Source of the DNA: Lachnospirales bacterium
GTDB taxonomy: Bacteria > Bacillota > Clostridia > Lachnospirales > CAMZNU01
DNA length: 64,000 nucleotides
Assembly: GCA_047974615.1 (NCBI GenBank)
Contig: JBKECM010000082.1
Span: 30,488 to 94,487 of the forward strand
Direction: 5' to 3'
Position numbers and translations under genes: made by a program. Below, in pieces: positions 28,932 to 59,177 of this stretch. How positions within the stretch are numbered: position 1 is the stretch's first letter; each line of letters opens with the position of its first letter. The notes below the pieces were generated by a model, which did not search any database, was not told the DNA's origin, and saw nothing but the letters and a program-made list of their open reading frames with translations.

Positions 28932-29075
28932 TTTATCACCTCATTTACTATATTATATAAATAATTTGTGATTAATTTGTGATAGTATAGTGATAAATCT
29001 ATAAAGAAAATCAAAAAAATTTTTAAGATTGCAATAATTGGATATGTTTCTTATTCTTTATACATTTTAAAACAA

Positions 29076-29110
29076 AAATTACCATAAATAAGTGATTTTA
29101 TGGTAATTTT
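29076..29110. terminator. Bidirectional terminator downstream of the tautomerase gene
   Basis: AAATTACCATAAA / TTTATGGTAATTT 13-bp perfect stem flanked by A-run and T-run. Confidence 0.7.
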
Positions 29111-29145
29111 ATATTTTATAATTTCACAGATATAAATGTGTAAAA

Positions 29146-29364
29146 TTATTTATTTTCATTTGCTTTTTCACGAGCTTCAATTTTATCAGTTAATTGAATT
29201 CCACCGTTACCAAAGTTGTCTGAAGACTTTTCATCTATTATGATCGCTACCGTTTCTTTTGGATAGCCTGTCGAATCAGATATTGCTTCTGTAACCTTTT
29301 CAATTAAGTCTCTTTTTTTATTTCTTGTTAAACCTTCTTTTAATGATACAAATACTGTTGGCAT
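29146..29364 (-). CDS. 4-oxalocrotonate tautomerase family enzyme
   Basis: 72 aa starting MPTVFVSLKEGLT (catalytic Pro1 after Met removal), beta-alpha-beta pattern. RBS GGAGGAAA. Confidence 0.8.
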   Translation of the reverse strand: MPTVFVSLKEGLTRNKKRDLIEKVTEAISDSTGYPKETVAIIIDEKSSDNFGNGGIQLTDKIEAREKANENK

Positions 29365-29506
29365 TGTTTTCCTCCAAGTTTTTATTTTATTATATCATTT
29401 TGTAGGTTAAAGTTCAATATTGACTTTAAATATCTTGATATGAATGTGTTGAACTTAGTAGATATCTACTTTGTAACAACTAAAATACGCTATTTACTAT
29501 GCTATC

Positions 29507-29542
29507 TAATAATTTTTTTTCTACTGACTTTGTCAGCACCCT
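29507..29542 (+). repeat. Solo terminal repeat of family F2 (F2-b)
   Basis: TAATAATTTTTTTTCTACTGACTTTGTCAGCACCCT aligns with the right end of F2-a (AGTAATATTTTTTTCTATCCTTTATCAGCACCCT). No partner end nearby. Confidence 0.65.
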
Positions 29543-29576
29543 CTGGTATAGACAGTTTTATGATAAATTTTCTAAT

Positions 29577-29762
29577 TGGCAACGTTGTAAAATTCAATAA
29601 ATGGCACATCGCAAAAGAAAAAATTAAATTTACATGTGTTTGTCAAAAGTCGCAAAGCCATTGTTTTGTAAAGAACCCGACGAACAAGGGCGACGAAGTC
29701 GTTTTCACGTAGTGAAAATTCCGATTTTAAAATGGATTTTTCTATATTTTGCAATGAAGCCA
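29577..29762 (+). mobile_element. F1 miniature inverted-repeat element, copy B (186 bp, lacks module 1)
   Basis: TGGCAACGTTGTAAAAT ... ATTTTGCAATGAAGCCA. Carries the GC-rich module 2 (29677-29723). Same orientation as copy A. Confidence 0.8.
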
Positions 29763-29891
29763 ATTATAAACATCAATAAAAAATGCAGTAAAGAAAAATT
29801 CTTTTAAATATTGACATTATTTGATATTTGTTTTAAAATTTTTATATATAATACATTAAAAAATTTTGTGTGAATTTAAGTGAGGGGAAGA

Positions 29892-50961: not shown

Positions 50962-53900
50962 TTAAATTTCTTCTAAGTGTAGTACACCATATCCATAAAA
51001 ATTATTAGGATATTGAAAGTTTTTTTCTCTTATTGCGTTTTTACGCAAGATTTTGCGTATTTCTTTTACTCCGTAATTGGGGTGCTTTTCTAGAATAAGA
51101 GCTATTAAACCTATAGTTAGGGCAACTCCCATTGATGTACCAGATATTTTTTCTATGTCATATAGACCGTAGGCATCTATATCAACAGAAGGAGAGGTAA
51201 TATCTATTTGCCTAAAAGTACTGTATTCTGTAGCACCACTAGCTTTGTAAAATGTACTAAGGTATATATCATAGCCAGATACAGAAATTAAATTATTTAT
51301 AGTACCGGGTATTGTTATTGAACCTAAAATTTTTGATGAATAAAAAGTTGTATTTTCAGTAGATAGGGGAAGCACAGGTAAATAAAATTCACAGCTTGCA
51401 GAAATGTTCAGTGGTACAAGTTCGATATACCAAATTCCTTTTATGAAGCCATCTAGCCCTATTTCTATTTCTGTTTTTTGATTTGTATTATTAAAATTTA
51501 TAGTGATGTTATAATCAAAAGTTTCTTTATAGTATGTGTTATTTTCTGTTAGATTAAAACTTAATTCTTCAAAATTTCTGTTACCTATGGTAAGTAAAAA
51601 TTTTGCATTTTTTTGTGTGTATATACTAATTTTTGTTTGAGGGTCATCAATATTTAGATATGTCATATTTTTTTCATTTATTATAGCCTTTGTTGTAGTG
51701 TGCTTTTTTGATAAACATTCATTACCTGTAGGTGCGACAATGATACAATTTTCATTTTTACTTATGTCTGCAAGTATTTTTTCAAAAGCACAAAGTTCAT
51801 TGTGCGAACCTTCATTTGAACTTAAGGGTATACCTATAATCATAGGTAAATTGTATTTTTTTTGTACTGATATTAAATAGGCTAAAGCTTTAAGAATATC
51901 TATTGAAGAAATACCGTAAAGTTCTGCATTTATAAAGCTTGATTTTTTATTTGTAGATGTTGTATCTGAAACTTTAGCACATATAATTTTTGATTTTGGT
52001 GCAATACCTTGAAAATTGTCTTGAAAATTACCACTTGCTACGGAAAATGAGTTTGTTCCATGTCCTATTGTATCAAAATCTTTTAAATCTTCATCAATTA
52101 CTTTTTGAATATCTTGTTTAAAGTATATTTTGTTTTCTGTAACATCATATATTTCTTCTACTCTTGTGTTGCCTTCGGTCATAAAAATACTATTTTTTAC
52201 GCATATTCCTGTATCTATAAAAGATATTATAACATTTTCTCCATAAAGGTTTTGGTTTTTATAAATTTTTGTTGCACCTATAAATTCTGAAACTTCATAA
52301 TTTGAGAGAGCAAAAATCTTTACTTTTTCAAAAAAAATTTTTTCTTTATATAGAAAATTTTGAAAATCTGTTATATATAAATAATTTACATCTACTATTA
52401 TATAATTAAATAAAATTTCTTTTACTATAAAGTCAACTATGCCTTCTAAAGTAGCTAAAAAACCGTTATCATCTTTCACTAAATATTCTACATATTCTTT
52501 TTCGCTTTCAACTAATGTAACTAGTTCTTCATAACAAACAAAACCAAAACCATATGCTATATTTGGATAGTCTATGTTTTTTAACTTTGTTGCACTTTTC
52601 TCAAGTAAAGATTTTATCTCTATAGAAGTGTAATTTGGATTTTTCTCAAATATTAAAGATACAATACCAGCTACTATAGGAGCTGCAAAACTTGTGCCTG
52701 TTTTATAGCTATAGCCATATACACTATCTGCACACCTAATATTTACACCCGGTGCTGCTACATTTGGTTTAATTTCATCTAAAACAGTATTGCCTAAACC
52801 TGAAAAGGTGGCAATAGATTGATTTTGTCCATCATAAGCGGAAACAGTAATAGCTTTTTTACTTGTTGAAGGGAAGGTAATAGTGTTTTCAATGTCACTA
52901 CTGCTAAAATACGTATCATATCCTACAGATTCTAAGATAGGTAAATATAAGTGTATTTTTTCATTGACTTTTCTTATATTCAAACTTAGTAGTACTATAG
53001 AATTTCTTGCTTCTTTATATATTATTTTTATATTAAAAGTGTTATAAATATCAGAAAGTAATTCACCGTATGAAACATAATACTCAACTTCATCTTCGAT
53101 AATGTGTTCAACACCTGTATTTTGCTTAAAAGTTCTTGAAACATATCCATTATCAAATTCTATGAAAAAATCTATTGTGCTATCACTTGGTACAAAAATA
53201 AAAATACTAAATTCTTGCACATTGCTTACAATTTCTATTCTATCTGAAGTTGTTGCTATTTTATGATGTCCTGAGTCACCTTCGTTACCGGCTGCTATTG
53301 TTATACCTATTTTTTTGTAGTTTACTATTTCGTCAAGATAATTTTCGAACAAAGTAAGACCACTATGGCTTGCGTTATTGCCACCCATACTAATATTAAT
53401 TGAGAGTGGTTTATTAAGAGATTTTGAAACTTCTCTTAAAAAATATATACCCTTTAATACTTCAAAAGATTTAGTATTTGAATTACTAATTTTTACTACA
53501 CATATATCTGATTTTGGTGCTACACCTGTGTTACCTGCACAAATAGAGGTTACAGAAGTACCATGACCAACTGTGTCAAGATGTCCTAGGGGTGTATTAT
53601 TGCTTAAGGATAAGTTAATGTCTTCTTCTGTATATAGTTTTCCGGTGCTTATTCCAAAGCCACCTGTTCCTTCTTGTGAAAAGTCTAGTATATATTTTAT
53701 TCTTGTTGTACCATCTGTATTTTTAAATTCTTGGTGGAAAATATCTATACCACTGTCAATTACTCCAATAACAGTATTCATACCTGTTTCTTCATAGTCT
53801 GTTAGGCAAGCATATTCCTTGTAGTTATCTGCTACACTTGCGTATTCTTCTTGATAAAATTCTATTTCATATGCAAGTTCTTGTGACAATATTTCAGCTG

Positions 53901-54129
53901 TATTTATAACATTAAAATAGTTAGTATAGTTACAGGTTATTATTGCATAATTACTACCTATTATTTCTACCATACCAAATTTTTTTAATGTGTTTTCTAT
54001 ATCTCCTAAGTATTTTACTAAAATAACAATTTCAAAATTGTTTAGGTAGTTTGAAATTACTGTTCTATCGTTATTTTTTATTGCATAATCAACTTGGTAA
54101 GAAAAAATATTATTCAATTTATTTTCCAA
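50962..54129 (-). CDS. Fused two-domain Csp-like subtilisin (S8) protease, CspBA-like
   Basis: Two tandem S8 units, each with a YAIIT-type propeptide. Residues are numbered on the 1080-aa track ORF. Triads: D150/H214/S505 (IDSG, GHGT, GTSFAAP) and D664/H715/S1024 (IDTG, GHGT, GTSMG). No signal peptide. Start placed at TTG 54129, 6 nt after GAGGTG; track codons 1-25 run into a repeat. Confidence 0.7.
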   Translation of the reverse strand: MENKLNNIFSYQVDYAIKNNDRTVISNYLNNFEIVILVKYLGDIENTLKKFGMVEIIGSNYAIITCNYTNYFNVINTAEILSQELAYEIEFYQEEYASVADNYKEYACLTDYEETGMNTVIGVIDSGIDIFHQEFKNTDGTTRIKYILDFSQEGTGGFGISTGKLYTEEDINLSLSNNTPLGHLDTVGHGTSVTSICAGNTGVAPKSDICVVKISNSNTKSFEVLKGIYFLREVSKSLNKPLSINISMGGNNASHSGLTLFENYLDEIVNYKKIGITIAAGNEGDSGHHKIATTSDRIEIVSNVQEFSIFIFVPSDSTIDFFIEFDNGYVSRTFKQNTGVEHIIEDEVEYYVSYGELLSDIYNTFNIKIIYKEARNSIVLLSLNIRKVNEKIHLYLPILESVGYDTYFSSSDIENTITFPSTSKKAITVSAYDGQNQSIATFSGLGNTVLDEIKPNVAAPGVNIRCADSVYGYSYKTGTSFAAPIVAGIVSLIFEKNPNYTSIEIKSLLEKSATKLKNIDYPNIAYGFGFVCYEELVTLVESEKEYVEYLVKDDNGFLATLEGIVDFIVKEILFNYIIVDVNYLYITDFQNFLYKEKIFFEKVKIFALSNYEVSEFIGATKIYKNQNLYGENVIISFIDTGICVKNSIFMTEGNTRVEEIYDVTENKIYFKQDIQKVIDEDLKDFDTIGHGTNSFSVASGNFQDNFQGIAPKSKIICAKVSDTTSTNKKSSFINAELYGISSIDILKALAYLISVQKKYNLPMIIGIPLSSNEGSHNELCAFEKILADISKNENCIIVAPTGNECLSKKHTTTKAIINEKNMTYLNIDDPQTKISIYTQKNAKFLLTIGNRNFEELSFNLTENNTYYKETFDYNITINFNNTNQKTEIEIGLDGFIKGIWYIELVPLNISASCEFYLPVLPLSTENTTFYSSKILGSITIPGTINNLISVSGYDIYLSTFYKASGATEYSTFRQIDITSPSVDIDAYGLYDIEKISGTSMGVALTIGLIALILEKHPNYGVKEIRKILRKNAIREKNFQYPNNFYGYGVLHLEEI

Positions 54130-54151
54130 AAAAATCACCTCACATAATATT

Positions 54152-54344
54152 GAGGGTGCTGAAAAAGTCAAAAAAGAAAAAAATATTACTAATGACAATG
54201 GCACAAAAATAGTGAGATAGCATAAAATCAGCGAGAAACGAGTGCTAATTTTATGCTACATGCAAGATGATTTGCAAAGCAAATCATCAAGTCGAGCGTA
54301 ATTTTTGTGAAGTAATATTTTTTTCTATCCTTTATCAGCACCCT
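54152..54344. mobile_element. F2 miniature inverted-repeat element (F2-a, 193 bp) flanked by a 10-bp direct repeat
   Basis: Imperfect ~38-nt terminal inverted repeats GAGGGTGCTGAAAAAGTCAAAAAAGAAAAAAATATTACT / AGTAATATTTTTTTCTATCCTTTATCAGCACCCT. Internal perfect hairpins TAGCATAAAAT..ATTTTATGCTA and GATGATTTGC-AAA-GCAAATCATC. ACATAATATT occurs at 54142-54151 and 54345-54354. Confidence 0.8.
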
Positions 54345-54377
54345 ACATAATATTATGTAAGGTGATTAGGATTAATG

Positions 54378-56687
54378 TTATTTTGTGTTATCATTGTCAA
54401 TTAAATTACTTTGTTCTTTATTATTATTTTCTTCAAGAAGAACTTCTACTTGTTCAAATTCGATAGCTTTGCTTATTTCTATAGATACTCCTTCTTTTTT
54501 TAAGTCTTCGATTTTATCTTTTTCTATTTGATATAAATCATCTATAGATAACTGTGGGTCTTCAACTTCTATAACAATATCAGGTTTATATTTTTTTAAC
54601 ATAATCATAAAATCTTTACCGTCTATATTTTCTTTATCAAGTAAAGCTTCAGATAGTTCAATTAATGCCTGCTTGTATTCTATAAGTAAATCTTTTGCTT
54701 TTTCAAAGCATATATCCAATATTTTGTTTACTTCTCTATCTACATCAGCTAAAGTTATATCAGAACAGTTTGAAGAACTTCTACCACCTAAGTATCTACT
54801 TTGAACTGTTTCGATACCCATCATCTTAAATGTGTCACTCATACCAAACATTGTAACCATTGTTCTAGCATTTGCAGTTGCGTGTTCAATATCATTAGAT
54901 GCACCTGTAGTTTCCATACCAAGTCCTACAATTTCTGCGGCACGACCTCCTAAAGATGTTATAATTTCTGTTAAAATTTCGTCTTTTGTTTTGAGAACTT
55001 TTTCTTCTTCAGGTGTGTACCAAGCAAAGCCTAAAACACCATTTGTACGAGGTACAATAGTAATTCTTTGTATAGGCGTTGAGTTTTCTTGTAGGGCAGA
55101 AGTTAAGGCGTGACCGATTTCGTGGTAAGCAATAAGTTTTCGTTCCTTTACGCTTATGTGGTTTTCTTTTTTCTCTTTACCACCAACTATAATTTCAACT
55201 GCTTTAATTAAGTCTTTTTGCTCGACTTCTTTTCTACCTTCACGAACAGCAAGTAAGGCAGCCTCATTTATAATATTTGCTAAATCTGCACCTGTTAAGC
55301 CCGTTGTTGCTAGGGCAACTTTTTTTAGATCTACGTGTGTGTTATATTTTACTTTTTTGATATGAACATTTAATATATCTTGACGACCTTTTAAGTCTGG
55401 TCTTTCAACTATAACTTGTCTATCAAAACGGCCTGGTCTAAGAAGTGCTTTATCAAGTATTTCAGGTCTGTTTGTAGCTGCTAAAATAACTATAGCATTT
55501 CTTGAATCGAAACCGTCAAGTTCAGATAAAAGTTGATTTAATGTTTGTTCACGCTCATCGTTACCACCAAACTGGTTATCACGACTTTTACCTATTGCAT
55601 CAATTTCATCTATAAAAATAATACAAGGTGAATTTTTTTTGGCTTCATTAAATAAGTCACGAACACGAGTTGCACCTACACCTACATACATTTCTATAAA
55701 TTCTGATCCAGATATAGACAAGAATGCCGCATTACTTTCTCCTGCTACAGCTTTTGCTAATAATGTCTTTCCGGTACCTGGAGGTCCCACTAATAAGGCG
55801 CCTTTAGGTTGTCTTGCACCTATTTCACGATATTTTTCAGGATTGTGTAAAAAGTCTACGATTTCGGTTAAGCTTTCTTTTGCCTCATCTTGTCCAGCTA
55901 CGTCATCAAAAGTTACACCGGTACAATCCTCTTTAACATATAGTTTGGCTTTAGATTTGCCTAAACCTAAACCACCATCACCTTTGAATTTTTTAGTTAT
56001 AAATACCATAACTAAAATCAATATACCATATGTAAGAAACATTGGTAAAACCCAATCAGTAATAATAGTTACAAGTTGATTATTATTTACTACATCTATA
56101 TAATATTTTACATCGTGTTCTTTAAAAAGTTGGTGTAAGGTTTCATCAGGTAAGCGTCCTGTATAAAATAAGGTATCTTCTGTAGGAGCTTGAGATTTTA
56201 GACGTTGAAATTCTCCAAAAGCAAGCATAAATTCTTCGTTGTTCTCTAAGTCTTCAGAAGATGTTGTTGTACTTTCTGTTTCATCTGTTTCAAAATAATC
56301 TGTTGTAATATTTTCAAGTTCTTCAACTTTTGGTGCGATAATTAATTTATCATATTGTATTTCTACTTCCTCGACATAGTCAGATTCTACCATACTTATG
56401 AAGGTATCATAACTAATTTGTACATTCTTATTTTGAAATGATGAAGTCATCAAGAAGTTAAAAGCAATAGTAAAACCTAAAGCCATAAAAAGAAAAGTGT
56501 AAACTTGTTTTGGTGATTGAGTAGGGGGTTTACCTTTGTTTTGATTATTCTTATTATCTTGATTATCATTTTTGTTATTGTTATTGCTGTTATTATTTTT
56601 TGAATCATTATTATTGATATCATTTTTTTGTTTTAAATCTTTGTTGTCATTATTTTTATTATTTCCGTTAAGATCTTTTTTGTCCAT
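54378..56687 (-). CDS. ftsH: ATP-dependent zinc metalloprotease FtsH
   Basis: Walker A GPPGTGKT, SRH, HEIGHAL zinc site. N/K/D-rich N-terminal extension. Start at ATG 56687 (MDKKDL); track start 56738 overlaps the upstream gene. Confidence 0.9.
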   Translation of the reverse strand: MDKKDLNGNNKNNDNKDLKQKNDINNNDSKNNNSNNNNKNDNQDNKNNQNKGKPPTQSPKQVYTFLFMALGFTIAFNFLMTSSFQNKNVQISYDTFISMVESDYVEEVEIQYDKLIIAPKVEELENITTDYFETDETESTTTSSEDLENNEEFMLAFGEFQRLKSQAPTEDTLFYTGRLPDETLHQLFKEHDVKYYIDVVNNNQLVTIITDWVLPMFLTYGILILVMVFITKKFKGDGGLGLGKSKAKLYVKEDCTGVTFDDVAGQDEAKESLTEIVDFLHNPEKYREIGARQPKGALLVGPPGTGKTLLAKAVAGESNAAFLSISGSEFIEMYVGVGATRVRDLFNEAKKNSPCIIFIDEIDAIGKSRDNQFGGNDEREQTLNQLLSELDGFDSRNAIVILAATNRPEILDKALLRPGRFDRQVIVERPDLKGRQDILNVHIKKVKYNTHVDLKKVALATTGLTGADLANIINEAALLAVREGRKEVEQKDLIKAVEIIVGGKEKKENHISVKERKLIAYHEIGHALTSALQENSTPIQRITIVPRTNGVLGFAWYTPEEEKVLKTKDEILTEIITSLGGRAAEIVGLGMETTGASNDIEHATANARTMVTMFGMSDTFKMMGIETVQSRYLGGRSSSNCSDITLADVDREVNKILDICFEKAKDLLIEYKQALIELSEALLDKENIDGKDFMIMLKKYKPDIVIEVEDPQLSIDDLYQIEKDKIEDLKKEGVSIEISKAIEFEQVEVLLEENNNKEQSNLIDNDNTK

Positions 56688-56727
56688 TTGAGTACCCTTT
56701 TTCTTTATACTATTTAATAGCAAATAA

Positions 56728-57342
56728 CTAAAATACAATATCTTTACGACTATTTAATTCCCATAAATACAAGCTTAAAATTGAACAATATGGTGAATAT
56801 ATTTCCTTTAAATTTAAAAATATTTTTTTATCCATTTTTTCTAAATTGTGTATTCTCATTAAGCTTTTTTTTATAATTAAATCATTATAGCTTAATATAT
56901 TCAATCTATTAAGTGAAAAAATCATAAACATTTCTATAGTCCACTCACCAATGCCTTTTACTTCAATTAAACTATTAAAAATTTCTTCATCTGATAAGTA
57001 ATTAATTTTTTTAAAAAAATTTTCGTTTTCAAGTGCAAAAAAAGATAGATTTTTAATATATTCAACTTTTCTTTGAGATAAGCCACAAGATTTTAATGTT
57101 TCATCGTTTATTTCCATAATGTTTTTAGGTGTGACTTCTTTTACCGTTTCCAAAAATTTATTTCTTATGCTTTTTGAGGCTTGTTTTGAAATTTGTTGAC
57201 CTATTATTTGGTTAACTAAAGTTGCAAAATGATTTGTATTTATCGGTCTTTCTATTAAACCAATCTCATCAATAATGAGAGAAACTCTATCATTTTTTTG
57301 CTTTAAAATATTTAGTTGTTCTTCTGTATATTTAAAAAACAT
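56728..57342 (-). CDS. HhH-GPD DNA glycosylase (3-methyladenine DNA glycosylase II / AlkA-like)
   Basis: VKGIGEWTIEMFMIF helix-hairpin-helix and a downstream catalytic Asp (YNDL). Start at ATG 57342 behind GGAGGG. Confidence 0.75.
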   Translation of the reverse strand: MFFKYTEEQLNILKQKNDRVSLIIDEIGLIERPINTNHFATLVNQIIGQQISKQASKSIRNKFLETVKEVTPKNIMEINDETLKSCGLSQRKVEYIKNLSFFALENENFFKKINYLSDEEIFNSLIEVKGIGEWTIEMFMIFSLNRLNILSYNDLIIKKSLMRIHNLEKMDKKIFLNLKEIYSPYCSILSLYLWELNSRKDIVF

Positions 57343-58865: not shown

Positions 58866-59123
58866 CTAGTAATTATGGATACATTTAGACGTATCAATAT
58901 TAACTATGATTAAATCGTCTCCTATTTGTTCAATGTCACAATATGATATTCTTAACTCTTGACCTCCGCTCATAAGTCCAAAAAATTTTGTACCCATAGG
59001 TATAACTAAATATGCTATATTACCAGTTTCAATGTTGAAAATTATATCAACGACACAACCATATCTTGAGCCATCTCTTATGTTTATTACTTCCTTTTCT
59101 CGTAGTTCACTAAATGATATAAT
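58866..59123 (-). CDS. YlmC/YmxH-family (PRC-barrel) sporulation-associated protein, probable ATT start
   Basis: IISFSELREKEVINIRDGSRYG matches the YlmC N-terminus MISISEF.. of B. subtilis. GGAGGTGA lies inside the track's first three codons, with ATT 59123 8 nt downstream. ATG 59138 has no RBS. Confidence 0.65.
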   Translation of the reverse strand: MISFSELREKEVINIRDGSRYGCVVDIIFNIETGNIAYLVIPMGTKFFGLMSGGQELRISYCDIEQIGDDLIIVNIDTSKCIHNY

Positions 59124-59177
59124 AAAAATCACCTCCATATACTATATTAAAATATATGAAAAGGTGATTTAATTATA

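Follow-up and report, generated by a model that had tools for sequence, protein, structure and literature searches.

A probable CspBA-type germination protease fusion with two catalytic triads in a Lachnospirales bacterium

The cspBA-like gene and its product

The DNA analysed here, referred to as the window, is a stretch of 64,000 nucleotides (nts) from the genome assembly of a Lachnospirales bacterium (GCA_047974615.1, contig JBKECM010000082.1, positions 30,488 to 94,487), and coordinates refer to it unless another locus is named. It carries a gene for two tandem subtilases of the S8 family which, judged from its sequence and from structural models, appears to be a divergent Lachnospirales branch of the known Csp germination protease family. 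An initial annotation, made from the letters of the window alone, had placed a gene of 1055 codons at 50962-54129 and described it as an orphan CspBA-like fusion. The open reading frame (ORF) and its translation agree with this gene model, and set it on the minus strand (50962..54129 (-), 1055 codons plus stop, TTG start). The 1055-residue product is 100% identical to an NCBI entry (P0001) which is titled only 'MAG: S8 family serine peptidase [Lachnospirales bacterium]'.

The TTG at 54129-54127 is predicted to be a better start than the GTG at 54204, to which the longest form of the ORF extends (ORF finder), because the sequence GAGGTG lies 6 nts upstream of it, because the orthologue P0002 starts alike, and because the extra 25 codons of the longer form fall within an inserted repeat element. 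GAGGTG is the Shine-Dalgarno sequence (54136..54141 (-)), and the block TATGTGAGGTGATTTTTT ahead of the csp start is kept in the orthologous loci L088 and L003 in an alignment of the intergenic regions. P0002, which is 60% identical to the window protein, has the same MENKLNN start behind the same ribosome-binding block, but with an ATG. As first annotated, there is no signal peptide; the maximum Kyte-Doolittle mean over 15 residues, for segments starting in the first 45 residues, is 1.36. A hydrophobic stretch arises only with the upstream GTG start and is located inside the inserted repeat element.

Catalytic residues of the two subtilase units

The product consists of two S8 units in tandem, each with a predicted prodomain and with the Asp, His, oxyanion Asn and Ser in register, as had been proposed. 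The subtilase domain of the first (CspB-type) unit covers residues 97-545 (52495..53841 (-)) and aligns to the structures 9sj6 and 4i0w; its catalytic codons are those of D125 (IDSG, 53755-53757), H189 (GHGT, 53563-53565), N282 (AAGNEG, 53284-53286) and S480 (GTSFAAP, 52690-52692), with the Pro of the last motif at P484 (52678-52680 (-)). The domain of the second (CspA-type) unit covers residues 610-1055 (50965..52302 (-)) and has D639 (IDTG, 52213-52215), H690 (GHGT, 52060-52062), N803 (PTGNEC, 51721-51723) and S999 (GTSMG, 51133-51135), with A1003 (51121-51123 (-)) standing in place of the Pro of GTSxAxP. All eight residues align with the catalytic residues of CspB, and the complete triad that had been claimed for both halves stands.

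The protein matches PF00082 in Pfam at 2.9e-51, and the N half and C half match one another with 28% identity (E 4e-38), again with the four catalytic residues in register. The spacing from His to Ser is 291 residues in the first unit and 309 in the second, in keeping with the long spacing initially reported. The YAIIT and IIVD strings, which had been read as prodomain signatures, fall within predicted prodomain beta-strands (E61-67 and E576-582) of the AlphaFold2 (AF2) model.

Prodomains, jellyroll inserts and predicted structure

The N-half prodomain would cover residues 1 to about 96 (53842..54129 (-)) and the C-half prodomain residues 546 to about 609 (52303..52494 (-)), both with a predicted boundary. 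For the N half, AF2 places beta-alpha-beta elements at 33-96, with a dip in the predicted local distance difference test score (pLDDT) at 91-100, and the offset to the mature chain of 4I0W sets the junction near Y96/A97. For the C half, beta-alpha-beta elements at 546-608 are followed by pLDDT values <50 at 611-623. A hidden Markov model (HMM) built from the prodomains of fusions positive for PF18425 gave a weak match to the N half (23 bits), and a weak 12.6-bit match to the C half came from a second HMM, made with C-half prodomains from other fusions. In the AF2 model the two units are joined by a short linker (about residues 542-545).

Each unit also carries a beta-rich insert of ~108 residues. 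In the N half this jellyroll insert lies between the oxyanion Asn and the Ser at residues 289-396 (52942..53265 (-)), with nine predicted beta-strands in 289-395, and in the C half at residues 810-917 (51379..51702 (-)), with ten predicted beta-strands in 810-916. The HMMER alignment of the N half crosses the jellyroll of 4I0W, and alignments of both halves to sequences of the Protein Data Bank (PDB) run across the region from the oxyanion Asn to the Ser. A nine-strand jellyroll has been described as specific or unique to Csp (Adams 2013).

The full-length AF2 model (pLDDT 87, predicted template modelling score (pTM) 0.73) shows two beta-alpha-beta prodomains and two inserts of nine to ten beta-strands. 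When it was compared with the PDB using Foldseek, the top 11 matches were all Csp chains, namely Clostridioides difficile CspA and CspC and Clostridium perfringens CspB, with E-values of 1e-38 to 1e-42 and template modelling scores normalised to the target (TMt) of 0.80-0.86; the next match was the subtilase Tk-SP at 2e-18. A separate model of the C half (pLDDT 84.6, pTM 0.90) likewise matched Csp chains in its top 11 positions (E 9e-33 to 4e-35, TMt again 0.80-0.86), followed by Tk-SP at 7e-13. Its query-normalised score (TMq) against the full-length CspC and CspA chains is 0.86-0.87, which implies that the alignment takes in the C-half prodomain. The gap in Foldseek E-values between Csp and other subtilases exceeds 20 orders of magnitude (>20). 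The jellyroll inserts and prodomain fold which the initial annotation had suspected are thus predicted by the models, and with all top 11 matches being Csp in both searches, structure does not set the halves outside the Csp clade.

Assignment of the halves to CspB and CspA types

The identification as a CspBA-like fusion of two Csp-type subtilases is upheld by NCBIfam, by the PDB sequence search and by Foldseek. The N half matched C. difficile CspB (9sj6, 9.6e-51), C. perfringens CspB (4i0w, 2.3e-50) and C. difficile CspA (3.9e-40), and the C half matched C. perfringens CspB (4i0w) at 1.8e-31. The best NCBIfam models were those for CspBA (290 bits, 2.4e-86) and CspC (193 bits, 8.6e-57), both far under their trusted cut-offs. 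The single ORF would encode the CspB-type unit first and the CspA-type unit second, which is the usual order.

In an alignment of 35 two-unit (fused) homologues, the N halves are invariant for D, H, N and S and for the Pro of GTSxAxP. D, H and N are also invariant among the C halves, where the Ser is present in 33/35, the exceptions being one Cys (P0027) and one Ala (P0038), and the Pro is found in 0/35, with Ala or Ser instead. The Cys of P0027 resembles the Asp-His-Cys triad reported for C. septicum CspC-1718.

A neighbour-joining tree was built from 176 Csp units, taken from the window and from 87 fetched loci (L001-L087), together with three PDB references. It separates a CspB-type from a CspA/C-type side, although the split has a bootstrap value of only 40%. 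All 32 N halves fall on the first side with 59 single-unit proteins that bear the Pro and both CspB references, and all 32 C halves fall on the second with 48 single units that lack it and C. difficile CspA; the CspB side also takes in two single units that are without the Pro. By raw distance the C half of the window protein is no nearer to C. difficile CspA than to CspB. The C half is classed as CspA-type because of its position in the fusion and the Pro-loss signature, more than because of the tree. The loss of the Pro in CspA/CspC-type units and its retention in CspB-type units hold with or without an intact triad, and loss of the GTSxAxP Pro is a simple sequence marker separating the paralogues which could aid annotation.

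The closest relatives of the window protein (P0002-P0007) are 36-60% identical to it. Identities are 52-66% in the N half and 48-53% in the C half, with P0007 lower at 38% and 33%, so that both halves are constrained, and to a similar degree.

Fused csp genes in other Clostridia

The initial annotation set the gene against the CspBA of C. difficile, and read its two triads and missing partners as pointing to a different wiring of germinant signalling or to a role other than germination. This is not borne out, as C. difficile is itself the exception. The cspBA fusion was described in five clostridial species, among which C. difficile is unique in being without an intact CspA triad (Adams et al. 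2013), and the CspA domains of fusions were later noted to have one, two or occasionally no triad substitutions (Donnelly et al. 2020). C. septicum carries a fused cspBA in a cspBA-cspC-sleC operon, its cspBA and sleC mutants fail to germinate, and its csp orthologues keep Asp-His-Ser save for one cspC with Cys. In C. difficile, sleC lies 1.9 Mb away from cspC.

The context of 32 fused genes was surveyed, with absence counted within the fetched locus. Fusions occur in Defluviitalea, Epulonipiscium, Vallitalea, Tepidibacter, C. butyricum, C. thermobutyricum, C. collagenovorans, C. rectalis and many metagenome-assembled genomes, and the C-half triad is intact in 23/32. Neither another csp gene nor sleC was present in 20/32 loci, 11 of these 20 having at least 5 kb of flank on both sides. 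A SleC-like gene lies within 1.4 kb of the fusion in 5/32 (at ~60 bp or less in four); such a PG_binding_1 gene is found directly after the fusion or within 1.4 kb of it in C. butyricum (L005), Epulonipiscium (L009), Tepidibacter (L018) and C. rectalis (L029). Only in loci of the Peptostreptococcaceae type is cspC downstream of the fusion.

Within the 64 kb of the window, tblastn with both halves detected no second Csp-like gene, and Pfam and NCBIfam scans of the ORFs detected no SleC-type (PG_binding_1) or Ger genes. The window has no other subtilase. The description of the gene as an orphan is accordingly correct for the window, but with 20/32 fused loci in the same state it is not unusual. 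An orphan fusion with two triads is the commonest configuration recovered and needs no special explanation.

Two-triad cspBA fusions are therefore widespread in Clostridia (Clostridiaceae, Defluviitaleaceae, Epulonipiscium, Vallitalea and many uncultured lineages), many of them without a nearby cspC or sleC. This corrects the impression derived from C. difficile, as a fusion need not mean a pseudoprotease half, and it qualifies statements in the literature that the Clostridiaceae and Lachnospiraceae encode Csps only as separate genes.

Two other arrangements were seen among the fetched loci. Peptostreptococcaceae bacterium VA2 (L020, 6591-15023) has two tandem cspBA fusions, both with degenerate C halves (DTNAA), and then a cspC-like gene. 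Tandem arrays of four or five single-unit csp genes are present in some Clostridia (L019, L037 and L071, also L060 and L075).

The ftsH-csp intergenic region

Immediately upstream of the csp gene and on the same strand lies ftsH (54378..56738 (-); TIGR01241 FtsH, 700 bits). In the close family ftsH (704-799 residues) is the only conserved neighbour of the csp fusion and the other flanking genes differ. The gap between the two genes is 56 nts in L088, 66 nts in L003, 1.1 kb in L001 and L002, and 3.6 kb in L008, where a gene on the opposite strand lies between them; ftsH is absent from the L004 locus and from the loci of all the distant fusions. An obligatory ftsH-csp operon was considered and rejected on account of the hairpin between the genes in L088 and L003, the opposite-strand gene in L008 and the lack of ftsH in L004. 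We treat ftsH as context and as a positional neighbour of csp.

In L088 and L003 the ftsH stop codon is followed by a hairpin of 14-15 bp, then a U-run and then the csp start codon. These intact hairpins are at 3181-3214 of L088 (-18.7 kcal/mol, z -5.2) and 9958-9998 of L003 (-18.4 kcal/mol, z -3.7), and the csp Shine-Dalgarno sequence, GAGGUG, forms part of the 3' arm in both. The hairpin is kept in three orthologous loci though the proteins are only 52-60% identical. The box CATAATAT has its opening four bases (CATA) in the 5' arm CACCTTACATA and extends into the loop, and this CATAnnAT box is similar to the -10 box used by mother-cell sigma factors. No sigma-E or sigma-K -35 element (ATA or AC at 16-18 bp) was found upstream of these boxes. 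The box can be regarded only as a putative mother-cell sigma promoter, because TTA at 15 bp is all that is shared as a -35. We infer from this layout that transcripts reading through from ftsH would terminate and have the csp ribosome-binding site masked, and that a transcript starting inside the hairpin would be translatable.

In the window this region is interrupted by an inserted element of 192 bp (54153..54344 (-)), located between ftsH and the csp ribosome-binding site. Its ends form perfect terminal inverted repeats of 10 bp (AGGGTGCTGA and TCAGCACCCT), another inverted repeat, of 16 bp, lies within it, and a direct repeat of 9 bp (ATATTATGT) borders it on both sides. In the intergenic alignment the element is missing from the orthologous loci L088 and L003. 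The element sits inside the hairpin, and its left end again forms a hairpin with what remains of the original 5' arm after the ftsH stop, at 54339..54364 (-) (-13.7 kcal/mol, z -4.65). The csp Shine-Dalgarno sequence is left ~200 nts downstream of this remnant, beside only a weak stem.

A sigma-70-like match (TTGACT-16-TATTAT) spans the right end of the element at 54171-54144; a sigma-70 promoter scan showed no enrichment, with 51 matches against 43.9 expected from shuffles. At 29525-29542, within a non-coding stretch of ~950 bp (28932-29879), a segment of 18 nts standing by itself matches the element's right end, TCAGCACCCT included, with 94% identity.

The wider window

Downstream, csp is flanked by a convergent sugar-acid operon with genes for 2-keto-3-deoxygluconate (KDG) kinase and 2-keto-3-deoxy-6-phosphogluconate (KDPG) aldolase. 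On the plus strand, three terminator-like hairpins overlap one another at 51033-51084, within the 3' end of the csp coding sequence, and presumably end the convergent KDG kinase/KDPG aldolase transcript, which would overlap the 3' end of csp as antisense.

A large plus-strand block for carbohydrate use occupies 29880-50522 and includes ROK regulators or kinases, glycoside hydrolases of families GH4, GH3 and GH123, ATP-binding cassette permeases, a GH30 enzyme related to endo-beta-1,6-glucanase, the KDG kinase and the KDPG aldolase. This block suggests a polysaccharide-degrading anaerobe of gut or sediment. The GC content is 26-32% throughout, and Rfam and tRNA scans of the window found nothing.

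Proposed function and alternative explanations

The reading in which we place good, though not complete, confidence is that the gene encodes a CspBA-type germination protease fusion of a probably endospore-forming, AT-rich Lachnospirales bacterium. By analogy with characterised Csp proteins, the most likely function would be that of a spore-packaged protease which activates the cortex hydrolase SleC. The protein would, by homology, be made in the mother cell during sporulation, which is probable because the csp operon of C. difficile is sigma-E dependent. The N-half prodomain is predicted to be cut autocatalytically near Y96/A97 and to be retained as an inhibitor, and a sporulation protease such as YabG, which has this role in C. 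difficile, may part the two halves. The proteins would then be packed into the spore, where at germination the CspB-type half would cleave pro-SleC and lead to cortex hydrolysis. Indirect support comes from the related fusions that lie beside SleC-like genes, from a YlmC/YmxH-family sporulation gene in the window and from the upstream CATAnnAT boxes. The C half could be a second protease, the role assumed for C. perfringens CspA, or could serve as a regulatory partner of CspB.

Several observations weigh against this interpretation. The Pfam CspB_prodomain model (PF18425) has no match to the window protein in a Pfam scan, and the protein is very divergent, sharing no more than 32% identity with fusions beyond its own small family. 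It also does not reach the trusted cut-off of the NCBIfam model NF040809 (germ_prot_CspBA), with 290 against 1250 bits. This excludes equivalence to the C. difficile protein and does not exclude wider family membership, because NF040809 is an 'exception'-type model tuned to the protease/pseudoprotease protein of C. difficile. A further point against is that the assignment of the halves to CspB and CspA depends on a motif and on the tree split with the low bootstrap value given above. None of sleC, cspC, yabG or ger was found in the 64-kb window, where the only sporulation marker is a YlmC/YmxH-family gene at 58866-59138, 4.7 kb upstream (75 bits, cut-off 44). Finally, an intact triad is no proof of activity; restoring the triad of C. 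difficile CspA gave neither activity nor autoprocessing, and triads may over-predict activity (Donnelly et al. 2020).

This last result is also one of the grounds for the possibility, which is tentative and less likely than not, that the germination role is the same and the C half, despite its intact Asp/His/Ser, is in practice a pseudoprotease. It would then be a CspA that does not cleave and instead has a regulatory or scaffolding role, in control of CspB or in sensing germinants. This possibility refines the germination reading and is not an alternative to it. All CspA-type units are without the GTSxAxP Pro, the window protein has a degenerate local motif (GTSMGVALTIG), the nucleophile is replaced by Cys or Ala in two fused homologues, and the C half is the more divergent half. 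Set against this, Asp, His and Asn are invariant and the Ser is kept in 33/35 across very distant taxa, a pattern difficult to account for unless catalysis has been under selection, if only for autoprocessing, and the disordered linker at 611-623 after the C-half prodomain in the AF2 models fits a processing site.

An explanation which we consider unlikely is that the protein is a generic intracellular subtilase acting outside germination, for example in protein turnover tied to FtsH, and that its likeness to Csp reflects shared ancestry only. The lack of sleC or cspC nearby would fit this, as would the presence of ftsH upstream on the same strand in the window and in L088, L003, L001 and L008 while the other neighbours vary, and the gap of just 56-66 nts in L088 and L003. 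Against it, both halves are predicted to have the Csp-specific retained prodomain and internal jellyroll, their high-significance matches are to Csp structures only, and related fusions adjoin sleC. An obligatory operon with ftsH is made unlikely by the strong terminator-like hairpin and U-run between the genes in L088 and L003, by the opposite-strand gene in L008 and by the absence of ftsH from L004. It is very improbable that the gene is a decaying relic whose lineage has given up sporulation or the Csp-SleC route. In favour of this are the high divergence of the sequence, the lack of partner genes in the window and the repeat element that separates the conserved upstream hairpin from the ribosome-binding site. 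Against it, the 1055 codons form an intact reading frame, seven family members with 36-60% identity retain all eight catalytic and oxyanion residues, conservation extends to the ribosome-binding site and the context of the start, and the YlmC/YmxH sporulation gene is nearby.

Within the germination reading, a fuller scheme can be offered as speculation, and as a whole it is improbable. In this scheme the fused CspB-CspA would be the entire Csp module without CspC, its intact CspA half serving as germinant sensor or as a protease that activates CspB. The terminator hairpin would mask the csp ribosome-binding site and insulate the gene from ftsH, so that only a promoter inside the hairpin (CATAnnAT, of mother-cell sigma type) would give a translatable mRNA, and the 192-bp element, having split the hairpin, may have rewired expression.

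Comparison with known systems

The CspBA of C. difficile (CD2247; NF040809; 9sj6 for CspB, 9pr8/9pr9 for CspA) is likewise a single ORF with a CspB and then a CspA unit, and it shares with the window protein, as modelled, a prodomain and jellyroll in each unit, the lack of a signal peptide, and a GTSxAxP motif in the N half with no Pro in the C half. Identity between the two proteins is only ~25%. C. difficile CspA has lost the His and Ser (DQNAA), whereas the C half described here keeps D/H/N/S, and cspC lies immediately downstream in C. difficile, whereas tblastn detects none in the 64 kb. The features of C. difficile-type pseudoprotease signalling (CspC:CspA) are thus not found, the C-half triad being intact and no third csp gene being present in the 64 kb.

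C. septicum CspBA-81 offers another fused cspBA outside the Peptostreptococcaceae, and there the gene is required for germination. In C. septicum the fusion belongs to a cspBA-cspC-sleC operon, whereas the window gene stands alone beside ftsH. In C. perfringens, separate genes encode CspB, CspA and CspC, with sleC after the csp genes, unlike the fusion described here. The C. perfringens Csp proteins are nonetheless presumed to be active proteases with intact triads that activate pro-SleC, and for both halves of the window protein its CspB (4I0W) ranks first or second among the matches.

The distant, unstudied fusions of Defluviitalea, Epulonipiscium, Vallitalea, C. butyricum, C. thermobutyricum and C. 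collagenovorans (P0008, P0018, P0022, P0024 and others) differ from the window protein in length, by an additional 60-180 residues, and share 25-32% identity with it. They match the Pfam CspB_prodomain model, which the family of the window protein does not, and none of them adjoins ftsH. They are nevertheless like it in having two units with both triads, and many of them also stand alone, as do 20/32 of the fused loci in being without other csp genes or sleC.

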